A DNA stretch of 64,000 bases. Source: an uncultured Prevotellaceae bacterium. Lineage in GTDB: Bacteria > Bacteroidota > Bacteroidia > Bacteroidales > UBA3663. This document shows, one piece after another, positions 18,950 to 53,982 of the stretch. The notes under the pieces are model-generated. The model was not told the origin of the DNA. It saw only the letters and a program-made list of their open reading frames with translations, and did no database searches. Position numbers and translations under genes: made by a program. Positions within the stretch are counted from its first letter, which is position 1, and each line of letters begins with the position of its first letter. Location: positions 16,150-80,149 of the forward strand of contig CAZMOE010000005.1 in assembly GCA_964567855.1 (NCBI GenBank). Direction: 5' to 3'.

Positions 18950-19954
18950 TTAATAATAGTTTGATAATGCCCTTATTTGGTAAAGAGCATTTTTTGAATC
19001 GTTCGAATATCCTTCTCCATTTGAGTTCCCGTAATCGAATTTTAAGTCGAACTCTATACTTTGATCTGGGGATGTCGCTTCGAATTCAGCAGAGAGTGTT
19101 TTTCGTCCTTGATATTCTTTGGTTTCCGGGGACTTTTTGATTTTTATATTGAATCCTAAATTCTGGAAGATTGAAAGCCATTCATTGTAGGAAAATTGAA
19201 AAGAAAATCCGAATTGATTTGTCCAAAGTGAGGGCATACTTTCATATCTGTTAATGGAAAGCCAGTCGAAGATCCCATCGTTTTTGGAAAAATCCCACCA
19301 GGAATGACCATTGATATCACATGTAAAATCGCCGTCTCCTTTGTCTTTTACTTCCCGGCCTAACCGCCGAGCATCGTCGAGGGTACTTGTACCAAGTGTA
19401 AGACCATCTACAGGAAAGAAGGCGTTGACATTGCGTGATGAGTTGTTTGCGAGATTGTTGGTTGTTCCGATATTGAGGCTGGTGGACTTTTGGACTTTGT
19501 CACATTCTTCAATAACATCATCACTTACATTACTGATTTGTGATCTAAGTTTGTAGAATGCGTATTTAAAAGCTTCTGCATCATTTATGTACATTTCTGC
19601 CTGGATTCTGAAACTTCCGTTCAGGCAGATAAGCTTGACTCCTTTGTATAGGTTTAATTCAGCGGAAGCCATCTTTACGGTTTCTTTGGAATATTTGGTC
19701 GGATATTCAAAAGAGCGGAACATCGTAACATACATAGGTGTGTTATCTGTTTTGCTGACAGATACATAGTAGGTTTTTCCTTCATATTTAAATTTTACAT
19801 CTCCATCAGAGTCTATTTCAGGGACAAATCCTTCTTCTTTAAGGAATTCAGAGATTTGTGTGCGCAGTTGCAGTTGACTGGCGTTATATTCATCCGCATA
19901 AGAGGCAGTTATGTAGCAAAATGCGATAATGATAAATAAAAGTATCTTTCTCAT
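18950..19954 (-). CDS. secreted/lipoprotein-like protein with a YbjN-like N-terminal domain (operon gene G)
   Basis: 334 aa. Signal peptide MRKILLFIIIAFCYITASYA. The N-terminal region (ISEFLKEEGFVPEIDSDGDVKFKYEGKTYYVSVS...) resembles the YbjN/T3SS-chaperone-like fold family. The C-terminal ~170 aa are unrecognised. The start lies 19 nt after the kinase F stop. Confidence 0.5.
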   Translation of the reverse strand: MRKILLFIIIAFCYITASYADEYNASQLQLRTQISEFLKEEGFVPEIDSDGDVKFKYEGKTYYVSVSKTDNTPMYVTMFRSFEYPTKYSKETVKMASAELNLYKGVKLICLNGSFRIQAEMYINDAEAFKYAFYKLRSQISNVSDDVIEECDKVQKSTSLNIGTTNNLANNSSRNVNAFFPVDGLTLGTSTLDDARRLGREVKDKGDGDFTCDINGHSWWDFSKNDGIFDWLSINRYESMPSLWTNQFGFSFQFSYNEWLSIFQNLGFNIKIKKSPETKEYQGRKTLSAEFEATSPDQSIEFDLKFDYGNSNGEGYSNDSKNALYQIRALSNYY

Positions 19955-19973: not shown

Positions 19974-22900
19974 TTATTTGCGGTATTTGAAGATTTCGCG
20001 GTCTTTGTTATCTTTGAGGATAACGATTAAACGCACTTCAGACGGTAAGACGCTTTTGAGTTGTTGCACGAATATGTCTGTAGCATTTTGGTAGAAAGAC
20101 ATATCCTGCTCCGAAGTTTTGTATTTCGATTCCGGAATACGAAATACCATCTCGGTCGAAGTTTTATTGAGAATGGTCCAGGATTGCAGTGTCAAATGTT
20201 TTGCATCTTCCCCCAAGTCCAAGGGTAAGTTTTTCGCAACTTCCCTTACTTCTTTTTGCCAAGAGGAAGGTTCTGTATTGGAAATGTTCTCCCAATTTTC
20301 GCCATTCCATTGTTGCCTGATGATCCGATTCCCATTTTTATCGTAACCCGATCTTTGAGAGGGATTGGAAGATGCATCATCGTATGCATAGTTCCATTTG
20401 TGGATGCCGTTTTCGGCATTTGTAGGGGATTGATTTTTCCCGAAATATGTTTCGGCGACTTTTCTGCCATATTCATCATAGGCATATGTTGCCATGAAAA
20501 CATTGTAGGCCAATGTAGGTTGTTCTTGGGTGTCGTACACGCTGTAGGATTGTATATTGTTTCTTTCATCGTATACATACTTAATGAGGTGATATTTTGA
20601 GGAAGGATTGATCATCGGTTTGTCATATTGATCGTAGTAACGGGTTTCCAATTCCTTTCCTCTTTGATTTTTTACCATTCTTATTACAGCCCATCCGGTT
20701 GCAGGGTTAATGATGAGATTTCCGTAACCGTCGCCGGCCGCGATATAGTTTATATTTCCCCATTCATCATATTGCACGAATCCTTCGGGAACATATTGAC
20801 TGATAGGGGTGGGGTTGCCATCGGTTCCATAATAAGACTGGCGTATGATACGTCCTGTAGCATCGTACTCGTTTCTGGCAATGGCATATTTATCCGTTTT
20901 TCTGCAAACCAACTTCCCTTTTGCATCGAATGTGGTAGTTTCTATGCAGTTGCCGCGGTCGTCATATTTCCATTGATAGATGGCCGCATTGTCGTTATTG
21001 ATCGGGGTGAGATTTCCGGTCAGATCGTAATATCGGACTTCAGTATCTTGACCGCGGTCATTACACGTGTATTCGGCTTGATAGTATTTTTGTTGGCAAA
21101 GGGCCGGCTTCCCTTCTGCGTTGACGCAAGAGATTTTAATCAGGTTGTCATGTTCGTCGTAGGTGTATCGGTTGTTGACCCAATAGCGGGGCAATTTCCC
21201 TTGCGCATCTGACCAATAGTTGGCGAGAACGTTCCCCCGTTCGTCATATTCCGATTTCTTTATAGCCCAGCCTTCGGAAGTATTGCAGAGTTCCCCTTGG
21301 GCGTTGACGTAACGGATTTCGAGTTGATTTCCTCTGTCATCGTATGTGGCGAACCAGCCAACGTAAGCTTCATTGACGAGATTGGTTTTTTGGCGATGAG
21401 TGTCAAAAAACTCGCGATGGGTCTCGTTACCTGTGTCATCATAATCTGATTTCCATCCAGCGATCAGTTCACTGTTTAGAACCAGGCAGTCTTCTGTTCC
21501 ATTAAAAAACTCGACCAATTCAGAGTTTCCTTGCAAGGAGTATTTGGTATGTACGCAAGGGATTTCACCATTGACAGCAGGGATTGGGTTCCCTTGGGCA
21601 TCGAAATCTTTACGGTAGATTTGCCTGCCTTGGGCATCGTATCGGTATGAGATGCTTGCGGTACCCCACGAAGTCGCGGTCAATATGTCTTCAGCATTAT
21701 AAAAGGAGACATTAATCATGTTTCCTACTTCATCGTAAGTGCTACGTTGGATAGCGAAACCTTCATTCGTCATGAAAGGATCACCGACGCTGTCGAGGTA
21801 GACGATAGTTAAGGGATACCCGTAGACGTCGTTGGTACTCTTTTGTCCGTAATATCCTTCGTTGCATGCAATCGGTTGTTTGTCTTTTCCGAAAAAGGAT
21901 ATTTCTGTTCTAAACCCGTTGGCATCATATTGGTAACGGGCACCGGTGATACCTTCGGAAGAAGAATAAGTCGGTTGATTGTCAATGCCAAAGTAGAATT
22001 GTTCGATGATAACTCCATTGGAGATGGTTTGCTCGGAGCCGGCGACATTGCAATCTCCCCGTAAGGAGAGGTTTCCATTTAGATCTTCATAAGATTGTTT
22101 GATAGTGTTACCCCATTTATCTACATAATTGCGACATACAGGAATGTTAAGATCTTTTTCCCCTGCCGGACCATAAGAGGGAGAGAGATAGGTGAACCGT
22201 ATGGGGTCATCGGCCTCATTATATTCTCGTGTGCGTATGGCCATTCCGCTTTTGGTTGCTTTGGGCTGTCCGTCATAACCGGTAAAAATCTCTTCTTTTA
22301 CGCGTCCTTTTTCATCCAAGACATATTTCCGGCCGTAAAGTCCGTCGGCGTCGCAAACGCGGGCGTTTTGGAAGCTCGCATATTTAAGTTCCGTAACGTG
22401 GCCTGCGTCATCATAGGTAAGTAGGTAACGCGAAACTTTTCCGTGTGCATCACCTTCGTCCATATTGGAGGTAAATGTCGTGACGGTTTGAGCACTTAGG
22501 TTCTTTTCGGTCCCATACTCATCGTCGTAGCGGAAAACCACGACGTTCAGGTCCTTATTGATATAGTCTTTGACCATTAAAACCTTGCCATGAGGGTCTA
22601 AAATTTTTATGTAATCAAGACTGCCGCTCTCGTTATAATAAAATTTACTGTCGGTAGGCCTTTCTATATCATCTGTAGTTGAATGTTTGATAATGCTACC
22701 CTTACTATTGATGTAAGACATGCGCAAAAGTTTGCGGCGGCAATATTCAAGACGATAGGAGGCGGTTCGGTGTGCGACTTCATCGTCAGACAGTTCATGG
22801 ATGCCCACCGGCACGCCCCATTCTTCGACATAGTCTTTGTAATAATATATCTTTGTCCGGGTATAATCCCACCAATAGATGCCAAGACCGATAACGAGAA

Positions 22901-23774
22901 TAAATGCGGCGGCAATAGAGATCTTTATCCCTTTGGGAACTTTGGGCGGATAGATAGCTATGTGAAGGGCTTTTTTAAATTCCTCGCAGCTTTGGTAACG
23001 TTCTTCCTCTTTTTTAGCTACAGCTTTGTCTACGACCTTTTGTACTTTTTCAGAGACGTATTTATAATATGTGCGTAGTCTTGGCAGCGGTTCTTCGACC
23101 ACTTTTTTGTTTATGTCTAACTCGGTCAATGTCGTGGTGTCATAAGGGGCGTTGCCCGTCAGCATCTGATGCAGGAGTACGCCGAGGGAATAGATATCGG
23201 AAGGGGTACCGAGATGCTTGCCCTGCACTTGTTCCGGGCTCATATAGGATGGAGTACCCATGATAAGGTTTTCCTCATCCTCTTCTTTCCCTTGTTTGAT
23301 GATTTTAGCGATGCCGAAATCCAGGATTTTGGGAATTCCTTCGTGAGTGATGATAATGTTGGAGGGTTTGATGTCGCGATGTAAGATGTGGTGCTTATGG
23401 GCATATCCTACAGCATCCAAAATCGGTTCGAACAGGGGGCAGATGCGGTCTTCAACAATAAGGCCGGAGACGGTTTCTATGTATTTGTCCAAACTGATAC
23501 CGTCGGCATATTCCATGATGAGATAAATATTGCCGGTTTCATCGATGTGATAGTTGATGAAATGCACGATATTCGGATGATTGAGTTCCGCCAGATGTTC
23601 TGCTTCTTCTTGCAAATGCCGACGGGTAAAGTCATTGACCATGTCGGCATTGATAACCTTGATAGCGACTTTCTGCTGTTTGATGAATTTGTGTTCTGCT
23701 AAATAGACGCTACCCATACCACCTTTGCCGATATATGAAGTGATGGTATAGTTGAGTATTTCTTTTCCGATCAT
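19974..23774 (-). CDS. Hanks-type Ser/Thr protein kinase - TM - large YD/RHS-like repeat ectodomain (operon gene F)
   Basis: 1266 aa. Kinase motifs GKGGMGSVY, VAIKVI, HRDIKPSNIII, DFGIAK and GTPSYMSPEQ. TM helix IKISIAAAFILVIGLGIYWW. About 950 aa follow, carrying about 20 YD-type motifs (YDDRGN, YDERGN, YDEHDN, YDATGR, YDEWGN, YDEYGR...). Confidence 0.85.
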   Translation of the reverse strand: MIGKEILNYTITSYIGKGGMGSVYLAEHKFIKQQKVAIKVINADMVNDFTRRHLQEEAEHLAELNHPNIVHFINYHIDETGNIYLIMEYADGISLDKYIETVSGLIVEDRICPLFEPILDAVGYAHKHHILHRDIKPSNIIITHEGIPKILDFGIAKIIKQGKEEDEENLIMGTPSYMSPEQVQGKHLGTPSDIYSLGVLLHQMLTGNAPYDTTTLTELDINKKVVEEPLPRLRTYYKYVSEKVQKVVDKAVAKKEEERYQSCEEFKKALHIAIYPPKVPKGIKISIAAAFILVIGLGIYWWDYTRTKIYYYKDYVEEWGVPVGIHELSDDEVAHRTASYRLEYCRRKLLRMSYINSKGSIIKHSTTDDIERPTDSKFYYNESGSLDYIKILDPHGKVLMVKDYINKDLNVVVFRYDDEYGTEKNLSAQTVTTFTSNMDEGDAHGKVSRYLLTYDDAGHVTELKYASFQNARVCDADGLYGRKYVLDEKGRVKEEIFTGYDGQPKATKSGMAIRTREYNEADDPIRFTYLSPSYGPAGEKDLNIPVCRNYVDKWGNTIKQSYEDLNGNLSLRGDCNVAGSEQTISNGVIIEQFYFGIDNQPTYSSSEGITGARYQYDANGFRTEISFFGKDKQPIACNEGYYGQKSTNDVYGYPLTIVYLDSVGDPFMTNEGFAIQRSTYDEVGNMINVSFYNAEDILTATSWGTASISYRYDAQGRQIYRKDFDAQGNPIPAVNGEIPCVHTKYSLQGNSELVEFFNGTEDCLVLNSELIAGWKSDYDDTGNETHREFFDTHRQKTNLVNEAYVGWFATYDDRGNQLEIRYVNAQGELCNTSEGWAIKKSEYDERGNVLANYWSDAQGKLPRYWVNNRYTYDEHDNLIKISCVNAEGKPALCQQKYYQAEYTCNDRGQDTEVRYYDLTGNLTPINNDNAAIYQWKYDDRGNCIETTTFDAKGKLVCRKTDKYAIARNEYDATGRIIRQSYYGTDGNPTPISQYVPEGFVQYDEWGNINYIAAGDGYGNLIINPATGWAVIRMVKNQRGKELETRYYDQYDKPMINPSSKYHLIKYVYDERNNIQSYSVYDTQEQPTLAYNVFMATYAYDEYGRKVAETYFGKNQSPTNAENGIHKWNYAYDDASSNPSQRSGYDKNGNRIIRQQWNGENWENISNTEPSSWQKEVREVAKNLPLDLGEDAKHLTLQSWTILNKTSTEMVFRIPESKYKTSEQDMSFYQNATDIFVQQLKSVLPSEVRLIVILKDNKDREIFKYRK

Positions 23775-23792: not shown

Positions 23793-24314
23793 TTATAGAT
23801 TAATGAGAACAGAGACCATATTAATGGCAAATCCTACCCATGCCCAGGTGGCAATTTGAGAGGCTCGGCGGGGTGTTTCTTCTTTCATGGTGAAATACAT
23901 AATCCAACCGACCAATGGTATTAAAAATGCCAATATATTGAGACCTATCGATGGCTCATCTTTTTTTGCTGGCGTGAGAGGTACGTATGCCGGCGCCGCA
24001 GGTTGCACGGCGTGAGAAGAAGATTCACACTTTGTCTCTGCTTCGAATGGCCGGGCACTTTTAAGGGGTAACATGGCGTAGATTTGCGCCCAAGGTAGCG
24101 GGATATGATTTGCCAGCATGATGGGGGCACCGGGAGCTATCTCGATGCTGCGATTGTTGATATATTCGCCGTTTAACGTTGAGCCGTTTTTGCTTATATC
24201 TTTGTATATATAGCGTCCTCCGCTGATGCTGATCTCCGCATGAACTCGGCTGATGTTGTTGTCTGTGACGACGATGTCGCAAGAATTAGAGCGACCGATG
24301 GTAATGGATTTCAT
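23793..24314 (-). CDS. FHA domain protein with a C-terminal 2-TM hairpin (operon gene E)
   Basis: 173 aa. FHA signature (ITIGRSNSCDIVVTDNNISRVHAEI...KDISKNGSTLNG). The C-terminal IGLNILAFLIPLVGWIMYF...WAWVGFAINMVSVLINL is homologous to the C-terminus of kinase D. The start overlaps the kinase D stop (ATGA). Confidence 0.8.
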   Translation of the reverse strand: MKSITIGRSNSCDIVVTDNNISRVHAEISISGGRYIYKDISKNGSTLNGEYINNRSIEIAPGAPIMLANHIPLPWAQIYAMLPLKSARPFEAETKCESSSHAVQPAAPAYVPLTPAKKDEPSIGLNILAFLIPLVGWIMYFTMKEETPRRASQIATWAWVGFAINMVSVLINL

Positions 24315-25678
24315 GAAAATTGTAGGATAAAATTAAGTATCATGTTTATGGCAAAACCGATCCAGGCTATTTTAGCGGCTGTGTGTGCCGCTTGGGGCCT
24401 TTGTTCTTTCCAGACGCCCCAAAGCACCCATCCGACGATCGGCACAAAAAAGGACAAGATTCCCAATCCGATGCCGAGACCTGCTCGTGTCGGAGGCTGT
24501 GGGGGAGGCGGAGGTGGTAGAGTAACGGTTTGGGGCAAACGTTCTTTGAGCATTTGGATTACTGATTCCCATTCAAGCCGAATTTCCGGGCGACCTGCGA
24601 GACAAACTTCCGGCAAGGCATATTCCTGTTGCTCCGGGATAGCATAAGGAAATGACTCGGATCCGTTGTGTAGATAGCGTCCGTCGACACCCGTGCCGTT
24701 AGTACTGTGGTCTTCAATCTCAATGATGGCGCCGGTAGGACTTGTTTTCAGGTATTTATAGTGGATTTTGAGATGGTTAGAGCTTACATATTCATTGTTG
24801 ATGACGATGTCACAATCACCTCTTCCGACTGTCACTACGGCCCCGCTGACTTTTGTCTCGAGTCTTTCCGGTTCTGAAATCATTTCGTCAATGAGGGCCT
24901 GTTTGAATTTTGCTGCCGTTTGGAACCGGTTTAACATATTCTTATCGGTGGCCTTGAAGATGATGTTTTGGATTTCATCGGAAAGTTCGGGACGCAGGTC
25001 CTTGGCTCTTGGGAAATCATGATTCAAGATCTCCATCTTGGTTGCAAAGTCATTACTTTGTTTTGTGATGGCATGTTTTCCGGTGAGCATGTAGTGGAGC
25101 AGACAACCTAAGGAATAGATATCTGTCCGGTGGTCGATGCTTAATCCTTTTACTTGTTCCGGACTCATATAACCGTCGGTACCTACACACATGCCGATGG
25201 TCTGTCCGGTCGTGGTGTTCATGTCTTTGGCGATGCCAAAATCGATGACACAAATGTTGCCATCCGGTCGGATCATGATATTGGACGGTTTTATGTCGCG
25301 GTGGATTTTGTTGACGTTGTGTATATATATGAATGCGTCCAAGATTTTTCCCATCAGCTGTTTCGCCTCTTTTTCAGAATACGGCCCGTGATCTTCTACT
25401 TGCTTTTGTATGGTTTTTCCCTCCACGTATTCCATGGGTAGATAGAGGTTTCCTTTCTCGTCTGAAAAGGTCTCGCCGATAATCTTTACCACCGAGGGAT
25501 GGTTCATGCTTTTGAGGGATTTCGCTTCCGTGTCAAAGAATGCCCGGAAATTTGGAATACTTACGTATTCGCATTTCAACATCTTGATGGCTACGGAATG
25601 ACCATTGGGAGCCTTCCCTCTGTAAACGGCACCCATACCGCCCTGTCCGATTTCTTCTTCGAGAATGTAATTGTGCAT
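24311..25678 (-). CDS. Hanks-type Ser/Thr protein kinase - FHA - Pro-rich linker - 2-TM hairpin (operon gene D)
   Basis: 455 aa. Kinase motifs GQGGMGAVY, VAIKML, HRDIKPSNIMI, DFGIAKD and GTDGYMSPEQ, with a Thr-rich activation loop (NTTTGQT). FHA domain (VVTVGRGDCDIVINNEYVSSNHLKI...DHSTNGTGVDG), a PPPPPPQPP linker, then GLGILSFFVPIVGWVLWGVW...IAWIGFAINMILNFIL. Confidence 0.85.
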   Translation of the reverse strand: MHNYILEEEIGQGGMGAVYRGKAPNGHSVAIKMLKCEYVSIPNFRAFFDTEAKSLKSMNHPSVVKIIGETFSDEKGNLYLPMEYVEGKTIQKQVEDHGPYSEKEAKQLMGKILDAFIYIHNVNKIHRDIKPSNIMIRPDGNICVIDFGIAKDMNTTTGQTIGMCVGTDGYMSPEQVKGLSIDHRTDIYSLGCLLHYMLTGKHAITKQSNDFATKMEILNHDFPRAKDLRPELSDEIQNIIFKATDKNMLNRFQTAAKFKQALIDEMISEPERLETKVSGAVVTVGRGDCDIVINNEYVSSNHLKIHYKYLKTSPTGAIIEIEDHSTNGTGVDGRYLHNGSESFPYAIPEQQEYALPEVCLAGRPEIRLEWESVIQMLKERLPQTVTLPPPPPPQPPTRAGLGIGLGILSFFVPIVGWVLWGVWKEQRPQAAHTAAKIAWIGFAINMILNFILQFS

Positions 25679-25724: not shown

Positions 25725-27515
25725 TCAGACCTGAACGGTAGAAGGTGCGGATTCTTCTTTAGGGGATGTTGCAGAAGAATCAGCAGGAGCGGACTCCCCG
25801 TCGTTTTTTATTTCGTGGCTGCTGTCTCCTTCCGTCGATTTATCACTCGGAAGGGTAGTTCCTGGATTGTTTTGGGAAATGCTATCTTTTGCACTATCTA
25901 TTACTTCGGTTATCTTAGGCTTAGACTGGCCGGAATCACTTGTTTCGTGTGTTTGTTTGTCGGGAAATTGAAAGAAGAAAGTGAAGATAGTATCAGAACC
26001 ATTTATAGAAAAAACGGCAGAATCATTTTCAGGATAATCGTTTTTTTTCTTTAAAATGATTGTAGTTGTAGTACTATTCTTAGATTTGATTTCAATTTTG
26101 GGAGAGACCTTTATGATGGAGTCCTGAGCCATTTCAGATATAGATCTCTTCCATAAAGACTTGCCGGCCGGATTCTTGATTTCGATTTGGGAAGAATAGC
26201 CTGGTGTGATGGAAACTAATATTCCATTTTTATTAGCCTTTATGGAACCCAAATTTACCGGTGTGACGGGACGTTTGATGATCTCCTTATTTGCTTCATT
26301 TTTCGAATTGAAAGGGGAAACTTTGAAATGAAAAGTGCGTCTATGGCGGCCGTCTTGCAGAGTGAATGAACATTCTTCTTCTTTTTCAAGATTGACACCA
26401 TCTTTTATTTGCAAGGAAATACGATCTTCTTCCTTTTCGGTGATGGAAAGCATGTCGACATCATACAGAACGGAATCCTGATTGGCTTTAAAGCCGGCCT
26501 CATGCCAAATGAAATCGCCTGAAGAATTTTGTATGAGAGTCTCGTCTTCTCTAAAGATAATGGTACATATTTTTTTGTTTTGAGGAATGTTTATTATTCC
26601 GAAATCTTCAGTGATGGATTGAGGAGAGAGAGATTCCCAAAGGAAATAACCTCCACCACCGAGCAATAACAGCGCTAAAGCAAGGAGGCTAAACTGTAAA
26701 ATGTTTTTTTTGCGCTTGTCATCGTTCTTGGAATGTCCTCTTTTTCCGGTGGTGGTAATCGAAAATTCTACCAATTCGCAGGTGATGTTGTCTAATCCTC
26801 CGTTTTCGCGGGCCTGTTCAATCAGAGTATCGGCACGATGCTGCATATTCGTGCCGATTTTACCGGCAATTTTAGCAATGGTCGTATTCGGCACCATGTT
26901 GCTGAGCCCATCGGAGCAAAGGAGGAAAACATCGCCGGCCTGGGGGAGGATGGCCTCCTCCCTGATGGTTGCCGGTTGCATGTTGGGAATGCCTAAGGCG
27001 TTTGTGATTTCGTTTTTACGGGGATGGTGTTCCGCCTCGGCTTCACTGATCTGTCCTGCGTCGACCAAAGTCTGTACAAAAGAATGATCTTTGGTCAATT
27101 GTTTGATAGTGGATTCTCGGATCAGGTAAATGCGGCTGTCTCCCACATGGCCGATGTACACTTTGCCGTTACGCACCAATAGAAGCACGCACGTTGAACC
27201 CATTCCTGTCAGTTCGGGGTGCATTTGGGCGTGGAGCAGAATGTTTCTATTGGCTGTAAATATAGCTTCGGTGATGGCTTCATTAGGGTCCGCATGGTAA
27301 TTGTCTCGTAAGTAGGCCAATATCGAGTCGACGGCGATATGTGAGGCTGTAGCACCTCCGACATGTCCCCCCATACCGTCGCAAACTACGGCCACACGGC
27401 CGTTAGGAGTATCGTCGAACCCTAAGAAATCTTCATTGGCGGCGCGTTTACAGCCAACATCTGTCGCTCCGACGATTTGGCAATATTGGCTATAGTCCTC
27501 TAAGTTGGTTTTCAT
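25725..27515 (-). CDS. PP2C-family Ser/Thr phosphatase - TM - extracytoplasmic beta-rich region with a Ser/Asp/Glu-rich tail (operon gene C)
   Basis: 596 aa. PP2C motifs (TDVGCKRAANEDF, VVCDGMGGHVGG, LLCSDGLSN, GGLDNITC), TM helix ILQFSLLALALLLLGGGGYFLW, about 240 aa unrecognised, then a low-complexity acidic/Ser tail. Confidence 0.85.
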   Translation of the reverse strand: MKTNLEDYSQYCQIVGATDVGCKRAANEDFLGFDDTPNGRVAVVCDGMGGHVGGATASHIAVDSILAYLRDNYHADPNEAITEAIFTANRNILLHAQMHPELTGMGSTCVLLLVRNGKVYIGHVGDSRIYLIRESTIKQLTKDHSFVQTLVDAGQISEAEAEHHPRKNEITNALGIPNMQPATIREEAILPQAGDVFLLCSDGLSNMVPNTTIAKIAGKIGTNMQHRADTLIEQARENGGLDNITCELVEFSITTTGKRGHSKNDDKRKKNILQFSLLALALLLLGGGGYFLWESLSPQSITEDFGIINIPQNKKICTIIFREDETLIQNSSGDFIWHEAGFKANQDSVLYDVDMLSITEKEEDRISLQIKDGVNLEKEEECSFTLQDGRHRRTFHFKVSPFNSKNEANKEIIKRPVTPVNLGSIKANKNGILVSITPGYSSQIEIKNPAGKSLWKRSISEMAQDSIIKVSPKIEIKSKNSTTTTIILKKKNDYPENDSAVFSINGSDTIFTFFFQFPDKQTHETSDSGQSKPKITEVIDSAKDSISQNNPGTTLPSDKSTEGDSSHEIKNDGESAPADSSATSPKEESAPSTVQV

Positions 27516-27524
27516 ATAGCGAGG

Positions 27525-28094
27525 TTATAATTGGGGGATGGCAAGGAAGATGAATTTTGAGGCTCCGATGACTATGATATCATTGGTATGAATTTTGGTC
27601 TTTTCACTGACGAACGAGCCATTGATGTACACACCATTGGAGGAATTCAAATCATCGGCCCAAAAGATATTATCGCCGTTTCTGTATAAAATAAGCAGGT
27701 GTTCGGATGAAATGTGCGAATCGTTTGTGATTGGAATGTCGCAGGTATTGTTTCTTCCGATGATATTTCGTCCTTCGTATATTTTATACACTTCTCCTAA
27801 GGGAGATTGGTCGTACGAGATGAGTAATCCGACTAATTTACGTCCTCCATCGTTAGGTCCAACGGTGGTGCCGTTGAGAGTGCGGATAACGGTTCTTCCT
27901 CCTCCGACGTTTGCACCGGGGGTGGATATGGGCTTGGTGGGTATTTCTCCTGTACTGCTTTCAAAGGGGTTGTTGACTTTTGTTCTTTCTGAGTTTACTT
28001 GAGTGCTTGTCGCATTGGTAGGACAAAAGGGGCATTGATCGCCATAGATGCTTGAATCGTACTGGTGCCCGTTGGGACATTTTTTAGTTGCCAT
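27525..28094 (-). CDS. zinc-ribbon plus FHA domain protein (operon gene B)
   Basis: 189 aa. CPNGHQYDSSIYGDQCPFCP, a Thr/Ser/Pro-rich linker, then FHA (YEGRNIIGRNNTCDIPITNDSHISSEHLLI...DLNSSNGVYING). The stop is 9 nt before the PP2C start. Confidence 0.8.
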   Translation of the reverse strand: MATKKCPNGHQYDSSIYGDQCPFCPTNATSTQVNSERTKVNNPFESSTGEIPTKPISTPGANVGGGRTVIRTLNGTTVGPNDGGRKLVGLLISYDQSPLGEVYKIYEGRNIIGRNNTCDIPITNDSHISSEHLLILYRNGDNIFWADDLNSSNGVYINGSFVSEKTKIHTNDIIVIGASKFIFLAIPQL

Positions 28095-28130: not shown

Positions 28131-29645
28131 TTATTTGAAAAAGTCTGATGCTTTTTGCGGTTGGATAGCATGGTTATAACCTTGGGATATGCCGAGGAAT
28201 CCGGAGACAATAACTCCGGCAAAACGGCCGTGACAATCGAAAACAGGCGAGCCGCTGGCTCCTTGATGTATCGTGATATTATGCCCGTAAATGTATTCTC
28301 CTCGTTCTTGGGTGATTTCTCCGCTTTGGTTATTTGCTTCAAGTCCGATTTGGGTGCTGCCCAATGTAAAAGATTTCGGGAAACCGATGGTGTAGATTTT
28401 ATCGCCGACTTCCATATCTTCTGCATGGGCAATGTCTTTAAGGTTTACTATATGTTTTACATTGCTCGGGGTCTCTTTCGTGTTAGTTTGGATGATTGCG
28501 ATATCGACTTCTTCGTTGGAGCTGGTTTTGACAATAGAACAGCGGGTAAGATCATCTGTGCTGGAAACATGAGAATCATTTCGGCCGATACCTATCCATA
28601 GGATTTCATAATTTACTTCGACGGCATTTGCCATGGCATAATATTGATTTCTTTCCGATTTCTGTTGGCATTCATTTCCCAAGGTTATCAGTAAAGACTG
28701 GATGGCTTTTTTGATTGTTTCCGGATCTTTTCGAGCCTCTTTCCCCATTGGAGCAATAACATGTTTGTTGGTCATGATTTCTCCATGGGGTGAAATGAAA
28801 AAGCCAGTGCCGCTTGCTCCGACAACTCCGGGCGCTGCATCTCCGTCTTTGTCGATGTGGCAATAGTTGAGTTTTGAAAGTTGAGGTATGAGATCTCCGA
28901 TCGGACGGTCTTTGATTGTAACACTATAACCGGATTGTTGATAAATGAGTACCACGGAGTTTTTATACATTGCATAAATTTCGGCAGGAGTAAGTTCCTT
29001 GTTGACGTTGAACAACCATAAGAATATTCCTGTCACGACAATGGCAACGCCGGCAATGGCACTCCATGTTTTTACCTGAGGGCGCGGACGGGGAGATACC
29101 GGCGGATATATGCTTTCCCATTGGAGCGGATACTTTTGTGCCAACATGACGATGTCTCCTTTTTTGAGCGGGGCCTCTCCATGGATCCGTTGACCGTTTA
29201 CATAGGTGCCGTTAGTGGAATTACGATCGATGATGCTGATTTCGCCATTGCGTTTGCGGCAGAGAATGGCATGATGGGCCGAAACGTCGGCGATATTTTT
29301 ACAGATAATGTTGTCTGTTGCCCTTCCTATGGTTTTGGAATCTATTGTATCTGGCGTAATGCCGCTTCCTGCATTATTGTTACCGTGAACTATAGTCTTG
29401 TTGGGGGTTGATAAAGCCTGTTTCCAATCTATCACTTTGTTTCCAAGCTTTACTGTTTGTCCGGGAAGCAGTTTGGCTTCAAGAATGCGTTTCCCATCTA
29501 CGAATGTTCCATTCGTAGAGTTGAGATCTTTGATAGTTATTGAGCTTGAATCATCGATGATCAGGAGTGCATGACTTCGTGAAACGGAGTCATCGGCTAC
29601 AACAAAATCATTGGAGGAACTTTTGCCGATTTTGATGGTTTTCAT
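28131..29645 (-). CDS. FHA - FHA - TM - trypsin-like (S1/Trypsin_2-type) serine protease (operon gene A)
   Basis: 504 aa. FHA1 (IKIGKSSSNDFVVADDSVSRSHALL...DLNSTNGTFVDG), FHA2 (KTIGRATDNIICKNIADVSAHHAIL...DRNSTNGTYVNG), TM helix WSAIAGVAIVVTGIFLWLF. Putative triad His (GTGFFISPHGEIMTNKHVI), Asp (VDIAIIQT), Ser (GASGSPVFD). Confidence 0.8.
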   Translation of the reverse strand: MKTIKIGKSSSNDFVVADDSVSRSHALLIIDDSSSITIKDLNSTNGTFVDGKRILEAKLLPGQTVKLGNKVIDWKQALSTPNKTIVHGNNNAGSGITPDTIDSKTIGRATDNIICKNIADVSAHHAILCRKRNGEISIIDRNSTNGTYVNGQRIHGEAPLKKGDIVMLAQKYPLQWESIYPPVSPRPRPQVKTWSAIAGVAIVVTGIFLWLFNVNKELTPAEIYAMYKNSVVLIYQQSGYSVTIKDRPIGDLIPQLSKLNYCHIDKDGDAAPGVVGASGTGFFISPHGEIMTNKHVIAPMGKEARKDPETIKKAIQSLLITLGNECQQKSERNQYYAMANAVEVNYEILWIGIGRNDSHVSSTDDLTRCSIVKTSSNEEVDIAIIQTNTKETPSNVKHIVNLKDIAHAEDMEVGDKIYTIGFPKSFTLGSTQIGLEANNQSGEITQERGEYIYGHNITIHQGASGSPVFDCHGRFAGVIVSGFLGISQGYNHAIQPQKASDFFK

Positions 29646-53901: not shown

Positions 53902-53974
53902 GCGATAGTAGCTCAGTTGGTAGAGCACTAGCTTCCCAAGCTGGGGGTCGCGGGTTCGAGCCCCGTCTATCGCT
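53902..53974 (+). tRNA. tRNA-Gly (anticodon CCC)
   Basis: Hand-folded cloverleaf. Acceptor gcgatag/ctatcgc, D-arm gctc-agttggta-gagc, anticodon arm ctagc-ttCCCaa-gctgg, variable loop gggtc, T-arm gcggg-ttcgagc-cccgt, discriminator t. 73 nt, with no encoded CCA. Confidence 0.93.
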
Positions 53975-53982
53975 CTAATATG

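Follow-up and report, generated by a model that had tools for sequence, protein, structure and literature searches.

A Hanks-type kinase with a YD-type repeat ectodomain encoded in a conserved seven-gene operon of uncultured gut Bacteroidales

Almost all that is understood about the receptor Ser/Thr kinases of bacteria comes from the PASTA kinases of Gram-positive bacteria. PASTA receptor kinases such as PknB of Mycobacterium tuberculosis, StkP of Streptococcus pneumoniae, PrkC of Bacillus subtilis, and Stk1 of Staphylococcus aureus combine an N-terminal Hanks kinase, one transmembrane helix, and repeats outside the cell, and they have a PP2C phosphatase as a partner. The actinobacterial fhaA-fhaB-pstP-...-pknA-pknB cluster also contains genes for FHA proteins and for a second kinase. 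Bacteroidales are dominant members of the gut community. Here we analyse a 64,000-nucleotide stretch of contig CAZMOE010000005.1 from an uncultured Prevotellaceae bacterium, which is called the window in the following and whose coordinates are used throughout. The window contains the gene of a protein, named here YD kinase, that has the same succession of Hanks kinase, transmembrane helix, and outer repeats, and its operon likewise encodes a PP2C phosphatase (of the Stp1 type), FHA proteins, and a second kinase. However, the YD kinase lacks PASTA domains (no Pfam match at E ≤ 1) and carries a 963-residue YD-type array instead, and the two regulatory threonines of the activation loop are replaced by acidic residues. 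The NCBIfam model PknB_PASTA_kin (NF033483) scores 254.6 against a cut-off of 450 and covers residues 9–274 only. As a further difference, the operon contains neither rodA nor pbpA. We propose, with a probability of about 0.6, that the YD kinase is a receptor Ser/Thr kinase that crosses the membrane once and whose signalling is triggered by induced clustering. The proposal builds on the established domain content, topology logic, fold class, operon conservation, and head swapping; ligand binding, clustering, and read-out by FHA domains are its conjectural steps.

The repeats of the YD kinase connect it to a second group of described proteins. The YD shells of type VI secretion system (T6SS) Rhs proteins, Tse5, TcB-TcC, and YenBC have in common with it the YDxxG-centred hairpins and a continuous antiparallel sheet. 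In contrast to these shells, the YD kinase has a unit of 32–33 residues, lacks an N-terminal plug, Rhs core, autoprotease, toxin, and immunity gene, and is anchored in the inner membrane by its N-terminal kinase. Teneurins and teneurin-like proteins (PDB 6fb3, 9ifo; PMC5851990, PMC13018210) share the type II topology, with the N-terminal signalling region inside and the YD array outside, and in animal teneurins the array serves as a receptor and not as a toxin. However, the FN-plug, NHL propeller, ABD, and Tox-GHH domains of teneurins have no Pfam match at E ≤ 1 in the YD kinase, and the template modelling scores (TM-scores) to teneurins are 0.14–0.24. The bacterial teneurin-like proteins described to date are toxins without a kinase (PMC13018210).

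Hanks kinases with periplasmic sensors that are β-rich or adhesive and not of the PASTA type are exemplified by M. tuberculosis PknD, with an NHL β-propeller, and the T6SS kinase PpkA, with a vWA domain, but the folds of these sensors differ from that of the YD kinase. PpkA works together with the phosphatase PppA and the FHA protein Fha1, and the YD kinase operon encodes all three kinds of protein together. Unlike PpkA, the YD kinase has no vWA match, no T6SS genes were found among the annotated open reading frames in positions 1–42,000 of the window, and the operon encodes a protease and another kinase in addition to five FHA domains.

The kinase domain appears intact, as the initial annotation had stated, with the motifs GKGGMG (residue 16), VAIK (36), HRDIKPSN (132), DFG (152), and SPE (179) all present. 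Pfam PF00069 scores 185.5 bits against a cut-off of 31.7, and residues 9–263 align to positions 1–255 of the 263 in the profile. A sequence search of the PDB identified StkP, S. aureus PknB/Stk1, and M. tuberculosis PknB as the nearest kinases, with E-values of 1e-47 to 1e-42. The YD kinase is thus predicted to be an active Hanks-type Ser/Thr kinase that is nearest to receptor kinases of the PASTA type.

The activation segment of the YD kinase reads DFGIAKIIKQGKEEDEENLIMGTPSYMSPE. The earlier description of this loop as acidic and poor in threonine proved correct, since the stretch from DFG to GT contains no Ser or Thr and five of its 18 residues are acidic. Residues D166 and E168 are located at positions -7 and -5 from the GT motif. 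The top PDB match of the kinase domain, with 165 bits, is an S. pneumoniae StkP variant with the loop SLEQEN, and a sister entry with the loop SLAQAN scores 160 bits. The StkP variants carry Glu or Ala at -7 and -5, aligned with D166 and E168. We take these positions to correspond to Thr167 and Thr169, the regulatory loop residues of StkP, whose counterparts in PknB are Thr171 and Thr173. The idea that the acidic run may be phosphomimetic gains support, because D166 and E168 occupy the two Glu positions of the StkP variant. The acidic loop is not peculiar to this gene but a trait of its family.

We compared the loops of 149 kinases carrying a YD-like ectodomain. The frequency of Asp or Glu peaks at positions -5 and -7, with 44% each, whereas Ser or Thr occupy these positions in 15–21%. 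The activation loop is entirely free of Ser and Thr in 11 of the kinases, and the arginine of the HRD motif is lost in 59 (40%; non-RD variants HQD, HLD, HKD, and HCD). The acidic loop is therefore a trait of the lineage, and it fits a kinase that would be independent of activation-loop phosphorylation. The family provides a natural experiment on kinase activation, in which acidic or non-RD loops replace phospho-Thr. Unlike the YD kinase, the second kinase of the operon retains a Thr-rich activation loop.

The C-lobe of the YD kinase contains a Thr triplet, PYDTTTL(T/S)E, at residues 210–218 (23121–23147, minus strand), which is conserved in 83 of the 149 family kinases and absent from the neighbouring kinase (24311..25678). 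FHA domains prefer Thr with Leu or Asp at +3. The triplet fits these preferences and is therefore a candidate docking or phosphorylation site for the FHA domains of the operon.

A Kyte-Doolittle analysis bore out the one transmembrane helix claimed previously, a hydrophobic helix at approximately residues 283–303. One helix is present at the same junction in relatives with kinase, TIR, or STAND heads. The region C-terminal to the helix (residues 304–1266) comprises 963 residues. The tails beyond the repeats vary among relatives (pilotin-like, PDZ, BACON, or PEGA+Sel1), and BACON, PEGA+Sel1, and PDZ are types that are usually extracytoplasmic. Since the kinase needs ATP and the tails of relatives are of extracytoplasmic types, a type II single-pass topology is predicted, with the kinase inside and the YD array outside. 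The signal peptide of the downstream partner of the YD kinase also counts in favour of an extracytoplasmic ectodomain.

The ectodomain of about 960 residues had been described as YD/RHS-like with approximately 20 YDxxG-type copies, and profile scores, repeat hidden Markov models (HMMs), and fold matches agree with this. We found 22 motifs of the form [YFW][DN]xx[GDN] between residues 380 and 1156. Pfam RHS_repeat (PF05593) reaches 35.5 bits (cut-off 22) and NCBIfam YD_repeat_2x (TIGR01643) 21.8 bits (cut-off 15.8); the individually significant RHS/YD stretch is limited to residues 916–950. A repeat HMM trained on the YD kinase itself gave 21 matches (19 clear units), compared with 1.4 in shuffled sequences. 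An HMM built only from TIR-headed relatives of Planctomycetes and Firmicutes recognised 16 units in the YD kinase, compared with 0.01 per shuffled sequence. Since the Pfam and NCBIfam scores are above their cut-offs and the HMM units far exceed those in shuffles, the repeats are not due to chance. The competing repeat families MORN, KWG, WG, PQQ, and TPR have no Pfam match at E ≤ 1. A sequence search of the PDB with the ectodomain gave only a weak match to Tse5 (E 0.008).

The spacing of 40–50 residues given initially was wrong; in the AlphaFold2 model, the period is 32–33 residues over 22 consecutive units. The consensus of the repeat is G[YW]Axxxx-YDxxGN-xxxxxY-xDxxGxP-xxxxx, and each unit adds a connector of about 11 residues to a canonical YD hairpin of about 21. 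The canonical period (about 21 residues), which is seen in the Tse5 alignment, is therefore not that of the YD kinase. The Rhs core is missing, as had been noted: regular expressions for PxxxxDPxGL and DPxGL gave 0 matches, Rhs_assc_core (TIGR03696) has no NCBIfam match at E ≤ 1, and no toxin domain was detected in the YD kinase. The membrane-proximal motif has the near-invariant columns Y8, Y9, D11, Y12, E14, and P19 (alignment A1). In comparison with nearer genera, the identity is 75–82% in the kinase and 33–46% in the repeats. The membrane-proximal segment takes a middle place, with 45–65% compared with 31–46% for the repeats. Such a gradient would be expected for a conserved output combined with a diverging binding surface.

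An AlphaFold2 model of residues 304–1266, based on an alignment of 108 family members, has a mean predicted local distance difference test score (pLDDT) of 92.6 and a predicted TM-score (pTM) of 0.79. The model contains about 26 hairpins, of which four irregular ones directly follow the membrane and 22 form the regular units of 32–33 residues, and it ends with the C-terminal α/β domain. In a Foldseek search of the PDB, the top 43 matches are all YD shells, with E-values of 1e-29 to 1e-10 and a probability of 1.0. They include T6SS Rhs proteins, Tse5, Tse15, RhsP, teneurins, a bacterial teneurin-like protein, TcB-TcC, YenBC, and mosquito SGS1, and the next matches are single-layer sheets such as OspA. 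Because all 43 top matches are YD shells, the local architecture of the modelled ectodomain is assigned to the YD type.

The global superposition of the model with these structures is poor. The query-normalised TM-scores are 0.16–0.34, with the highest values for Tc-toxin pore structures (0.33–0.34) and 0.32 for Tse5, and the target-normalised TM-score is at most 0.40 (YenC). The root-mean-square deviations from cocoons are 12.8–31 Å over 680–1290 aligned columns, mostly 17–31 Å, with 12.8–14.1 Å for YenC. The poor global fit and the absence of cap elements argue against a standard cocoon, and the high pTM argues for a compact, well-defined body.

The C-terminal domain was also modelled separately from residues 1159–1266 (pLDDT 87.8). 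Its Foldseek matches are 6i2v (TM-score 0.60), 4ftf (0.57), and 3npd (0.54), with E-values of 7e-4 to 4e-3. The domain thus resembles the type II secretion system (T2SS) pilotins AspS and EpsS and the secreted protein PA3611; the match is modest, but it is the sole significant one. The pilotin-like domain is found in 114 of 149 kinase-headed relatives compared with one of 39 TIR-headed ones, and is specific to the kinase-headed subfamily.

Table 1 Features of the YD kinase and its operon in the window
Feature	Position	Strand	Remarks
Gene 1: two cytoplasmic FHA domains, transmembrane helix (at 196), periplasmic trypsin-like protease	28131..29645	-	Pfam FHA x2, Trypsin_2
Gene 2: small FHA-domain protein	27525..28094	-	Pfam FHA E 6.2e-16
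Gene 3: PP2C Ser/Thr phosphatase, transmembrane helix at 275, ~300-residue extracytoplasmic tail	25725..27515	-	NCBIfam Stp1_PP2C_phos 247.4 bits, cut-off 230
Gene 4: second Hanks kinase, FHA, C-terminal tail with two transmembrane helices	24311..25678	-	Pfam Pkinase E 1.2e-51, FHA E 1.7e-8
Gene 5: FHA protein with C-terminal membrane anchor	23793..24314	-	Pfam FHA E 1.1e-15; transmembrane helix; position conserved
Gene 6: YD kinase	19974..23774	-	1266 residues; Hanks kinase, transmembrane helix, YD-like repeat ectodomain, C-terminal α/β domain
YD kinase, predicted cytoplasmic Hanks-type Ser/Thr kinase domain, residues 9–263	22986..23750	-	Pfam Pkinase E 1.6e-54; catalytic motifs complete
YD kinase, activation segment, residues 152–181	23232..23321	-	DFG-to-GT stretch free of Ser/Thr; EEDEE run
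YD kinase, single transmembrane helix, residues 283–303, N-terminus predicted inside	22866..22928	-	Kyte-Doolittle window score 2.09
YD kinase, membrane-proximal ectodomain segment, residues 304–445	22440..22865	-	Motif YYKDYVExWGVPxGIxxLS; best-conserved part of the ectodomain
YD kinase, array of ~22 regular 32–33-residue YD-like β-hairpin units, residues 446–1166	20277..22439	-	Pfam RHS_repeat, repeat HMMs, AlphaFold2, Foldseek
YD kinase, C-terminal α/β domain, residues 1171–1266	19977..20264	-	Predicted fold like T2SS pilotins AspS/EpsS
Gene 7: secreted protein, N-terminal YbjN / TY-Chap1-like domain	18950..19954	-	Signal peptide; orthologue matches

The transmembrane helix and the repeats form a module that is shared by a large family. 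An ectodomain-only search returned 121 clusters at 90% identity, mostly of 1200–1330 residues with the kinase, transmembrane helix, and repeats in this order, and approximately 100 of the clusters are kinase-headed. These kinase-headed relatives originate from metagenome-assembled genomes (MAGs) of Muribaculaceae, Prevotellaceae, and Spirochaetia, and their sole name is 'serine/threonine protein kinase'. A scan of GTDB with one genome per species identified relatives in 111 species, mostly kinase-headed, the best of which is only 44% identical to the YD kinase (Phocaeicola MAG). The species are nearly all uncultured Bacteroidales of the gut, and some belong to Spirochaetia, Planctomycetes, or Firmicutes. 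The combination of Pkinase and RHS_repeat, for which a survey had been suggested together with the initial annotation, is therefore common (approximately 100 clusters, most of the 111 GTDB species with a relative), and its members are annotated only as generic kinases. A HMMER search over 1.84 billion representatives yielded 3482 clusters at E ≤ 1e-3, 890 of them at E ≤ 1e-30.

In other members of the family, the module is fused to TIR or ThsB-like TIR domains (including double TIR), nSTAND1, SIR2_2, or heads with multiple transmembrane helices. The 258 family proteins that were retrieved comprise approximately 149 kinase-headed, at least 39 TIR-headed, and about 15 STAND-headed members (approximate counts). 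The juxtamembrane motif WDYxRTKxxYY(K/A)DYVExxGVPxGIGxLS is kept across the swapped heads, including the TIR-headed proteins of Planctomycetes. One nSTAND1-headed member has a caspase-like N-terminal sequence motif, which was read by eye. No Pfam family other than RHS_repeat, often with a faint match, covers the module. PF27244 and PF27537 were considered as dedicated families for the module and rejected as faint GtfB_M and HoxH matches on relatives.

The possibility that the gene is an artefact, produced by chance motifs or by an assembly or frameshift fusion of two genes, is practically nil. The full-length architecture is shared by approximately 100 clusters that are independent of each other and by the majority of the 111 GTDB species, shuffled controls yield 0.01–1.4 units compared with 16–21 observed, and the model is of high confidence. 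Nothing was found in favour of an artefact. No database record of the exact protein sequence from the window was found.

The YD kinase is encoded by the sixth gene of a tightly packed operon of seven genes on the minus strand (Table 1). In total, the operon encodes five FHA domains, two kinases, one PP2C phosphatase, and one FHA-coupled periplasmic protease, which makes it a ready-made experimental target. We analysed the gene order in 72 kinase-headed loci from other species. The order FHA2-protease, FHA, PP2C, STK-FHA, (FHA-TM), YD kinase is present in 30 of them, and a shorter order of PP2C, FHA-TM, YD kinase, flanked by further kinases, in 21. A PP2C is encoded in 64 of the 72 loci, and in 44 the gene directly downstream of the YD kinase is YbjN-like. 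In a 95%-identical strain, the synteny is identical, including the PP2C. The operon thus recurs in dozens of uncultured gut Bacteroidales.

The product of gene 7 is likely a periplasmic partner of the YD kinase. Its N-terminal domain of about 140 residues has TY-Chap1 matches in 20 and YbjN matches in 19 of 46 orthologues, with a best E-value of 2e-5. Fusions of the YbjN-like domain with YD proteins were searched for and not found, and BLAST detected no similarity between the gene 7 protein and the C-terminal domain of the YD kinase. The YbjN-like protein is often a stand-alone protein of about 160 residues and is sometimes encoded in two or three tandem copies (e.g. loci L003 and L016).

The surroundings of the operon are core chromosome, with genes for GltB (glutamate synthase), CarAB, NrdD, Tex, an AddA-like helicase, CdaA, DHPS, a LysR regulator, and an Asp-Al_Ex transporter. 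No T6SS, mobile-element, or defence genes are present among the annotated open reading frames in positions 1–42,000 of the window, and the YD kinase locus is not part of a mobile or defence island. PADLOC gave only matches to the kinase domains (PD-T4-6, mad6) and generic matches to the protease and PP2C, and none for the ectodomain, the FHA proteins, or gene 7.

According to the proposed mechanism, the repeat sheet and the tip of the YD kinase would bind an extracytoplasmic ligand or a component of the envelope. Binding would alter the self-association of the receptor and bring its kinase heads close to each other. Acidic residues already occupy the loop positions at which PASTA kinases are phosphorylated, so that the YD kinase may not need loop phosphorylation, and it would then be controlled by proximity and not by a phospho-switch in the loop. 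The phospho-Thr marks set by the kinase would be read by the five FHA domains of the operon, including those of the FHA-coupled periplasmic protease and the second FHA kinase. The PP2C phosphatase of the operon would erase the marks and reset the signal.

We infer that the YD-like array functions as a sensor. This interpretation is strengthened by the occurrence of the same module with TIR, nSTAND1, or SIR2 heads in other bacteria. Kinase, TIR, SIR2, and STAND heads are all switched on by dimerisation or higher-order assembly, and activation by self-association is the simplest reason why one ectodomain could serve all of them. The reuse of the ectodomain points to a general module for sensing outside the cytoplasm, with induced proximity as its mode of action. 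If this is true, some bacterial TIR and STAND proteins monitor the cell exterior, which goes beyond current models of bacterial immunity. Bacteroidales are not known to have the PASTA kinase / PP2C / FHA system of Gram-positive bacteria. Since this nearest functional analogue appears to be lacking, the monitoring of the envelope is the most economical guess for the role of the YD kinase.

Several points weigh against a receptor that signals by induced clustering. No ligand, substrate, phenotype, or experiment for any family member was found in the searchable literature. The acidic loop could also indicate a constitutively active kinase with the role of a scaffold, and any repeat array under relaxed constraint would likewise be expected to diverge faster. 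A sheet that closes into a cocoon might serve for encapsulation or as a rigid spacer, and not for ligand binding. Finally, the cytoplasmic juxtamembrane linker has only about 15 residues and contains no Thr, so that docking sites for FHA domains are not obvious.

The swapped heads that support a sensor also point to a receptor of an immune type. The YD-like module would then serve as an ectodomain for pattern recognition, with which molecules from phages, competitors, or the host are detected outside the cytoplasm, and the kinase head would be one output variant, whereas other members would trigger NAD+ depletion by TIR or SIR2 or effectors controlled by STAND. TIR, ThsB-like TIR, nSTAND1, and SIR2_2 heads are typical of conflict systems, and 40% of the family kinases are non-RD, a trait associated with receptor kinases for pattern recognition in plants and animals. 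The divergence of the repeats is fast, some genomes encode several paralogues, and one TIR-headed gene adjoins a type IIG methyltransferase gene. However, the kinase operon is located among housekeeping genes and not in a defence island, PADLOC yields only generic matches, the TIR-headed loci lack conserved neighbours and have mostly metabolic flanks, and the Bacteroidales operon encodes no effector that would kill or arrest the cell. We therefore regard an immune-type receptor as doubtful. It is still less likely that the array is an envelope scaffold or ruler, which would not sense a variable ligand but position the FHA, PP2C, and protease machinery by means of a rigid periplasmic spacer with a pilotin-like tip anchored to peptidoglycan or an outer-membrane partner. 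The AspS and EpsS pilotins that the tip resembles bind a secretin peptide at the outer membrane, relatives have PDZ, BACON, or PEGA+Sel1 in place of the tip, and the high pTM is suggestive of a rigid body. Moreover, both the tip and the YbjN-like protein encoded downstream are specific to the kinase-headed subfamily. Against a ruler stand the modest pilotin match (TM-scores and E-values given above) and the Gram-positive members of the family (Clostridium, Oscillospiraceae), which have no outer membrane, and a ruler would leave unexplained why heads that require induced oligomerisation are attached to it.

The RHS_repeat match in Pfam and the Rhs toxins and teneurins among the top structural matches also raise the question of a degenerate polymorphic toxin of the Rhs or teneurin type, in which a closed YD cocoon with C-terminal cargo would be fused to a kinase; the topology, with the N-terminus inside and the C-terminus outside, is that of teneurins. 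Nevertheless, the protein has no Rhs core, aspartyl autoprotease motif, or toxin domain, and the kinase and transmembrane helix are found at its N-terminus in place of a PAAR, VgrG-linked, or signal-peptide trafficking domain. The C-terminal domain has a conserved pilotin-like fold and is not a polymorphic tip, the downstream gene encodes a secreted YbjN-like protein and not a cytoplasmic immunity protein, and the TM-scores to every cocoon are at most 0.34 (query-normalised) or 0.40 (target-normalised). As every feature specific to membership of the toxin families is missing, this explanation is disfavoured and highly improbable. The receptor that signals by clustering remains the preferred interpretation, since it accounts for one ectodomain carrying heads that are all activated by self-association.

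The YD kinase would define a different class of sensor, a YD-type hairpin array that has no toxin function and is encoded within a conserved operon of seven genes. Toll-like receptors and plant receptor-like kinases offer an analogy only: they also have a repeat ectodomain, one transmembrane helix, and a TIR domain or an often non-RD kinase, and they associate upon ligand binding. However, the ectodomain of the YD kinase is a YD hairpin array and not a leucine-rich repeat, and there is no evidence of a common descent of the whole receptor. We speculate, while considering it more likely wrong than right by a wide margin, that the 33-residue YD-like array and the conserved juxtamembrane motif constitute the ectodomain of widespread, undescribed single-pass surface receptors of bacteria with interchangeable kinase (often non-RD), TIR, SIR2, and nSTAND1 heads. 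Such receptors would correspond in prokaryotes to the Toll-like receptors and the receptor kinases of plants and would sense extracytoplasmic signals of non-self or danger, and a toxin-shell fold would have been turned into a receptor independently of teneurins.

Each of the two parts of the YD kinase is of a known kind, and other sensors have been described on receptor kinases; the combination of the two parts is common in uncultured gut bacteria and uncharacterised. No description of a YD/RHS ectodomain on a Hanks kinase, a TIR protein, or a STAND protein was found in the searchable literature. The architecture is absent from the 2005 survey of Ser/Thr kinase architectures (PMC1262709), the paper on teneurin-like proteins (PMC13018210), and the surveys of bacterial conflict systems (PMC8195603 and PMC7159879).

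Additional observations concern the other proteins of the operon. The architecture of the gene 1 product (28131–29645) would couple the reading of phospho-Thr inside the cell to proteolysis outside, and the gene is the first of the operon in at least 30 species. The tail of the PP2C (residues ~296–596) is rich in Ser, Thr, and Lys, has no family match, and is a second possible sensing element of the operon. The tails of STK-FHA (24311–24475) and of the small FHA protein (23793–23960) are alike, with the pattern …P.VGW…W.GFAINM… and no Pfam match, which suggests a joint module for membrane anchoring or pairing.

The genomic settings of the relatives are diverse. One Bacteroidales MAG contains two tandem YD-kinase genes (locus L054, 3805–7608 and 9098–12790). 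TIR-headed relatives stand alone among unrelated, mostly metabolic genes, and no conserved partner or defence island was found near them. A type IIG (Eco57I/MmeI-like) restriction-modification methyltransferase is encoded directly upstream of one TIR-TM-YD gene (locus L065, 4806–7964) and is the sole defence-type neighbour among eight TIR-headed loci. Two TIR-TM-YD paralogues each are present in a Thermoguttaceae MAG (L064/L065) and in two Planctomycetaceae MAGs (L066/L072 and L061/L079), and some of these proteins end in PDZ. A further TIR-TM-YD member is encoded among transport and metabolic genes of Clostridium sp. AM58-1XD (GCA_003464085.1; L082, 6001–9489), an assembly that is named as a Clostridium strain and not marked as a MAG.

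A scan of the operon for promoters and terminators showed no enrichment compared with shuffled sequences, and Rfam and tRNA scans of the window gave nothing relevant to the YD kinase; the only tRNA is Gly-CCC at 53902–53975. The G+C content per 2-kb block varies between 41 and 57% over the window, and it is 42–46% in the operon region and 52–57% in the flanking GltB/CarB genes.

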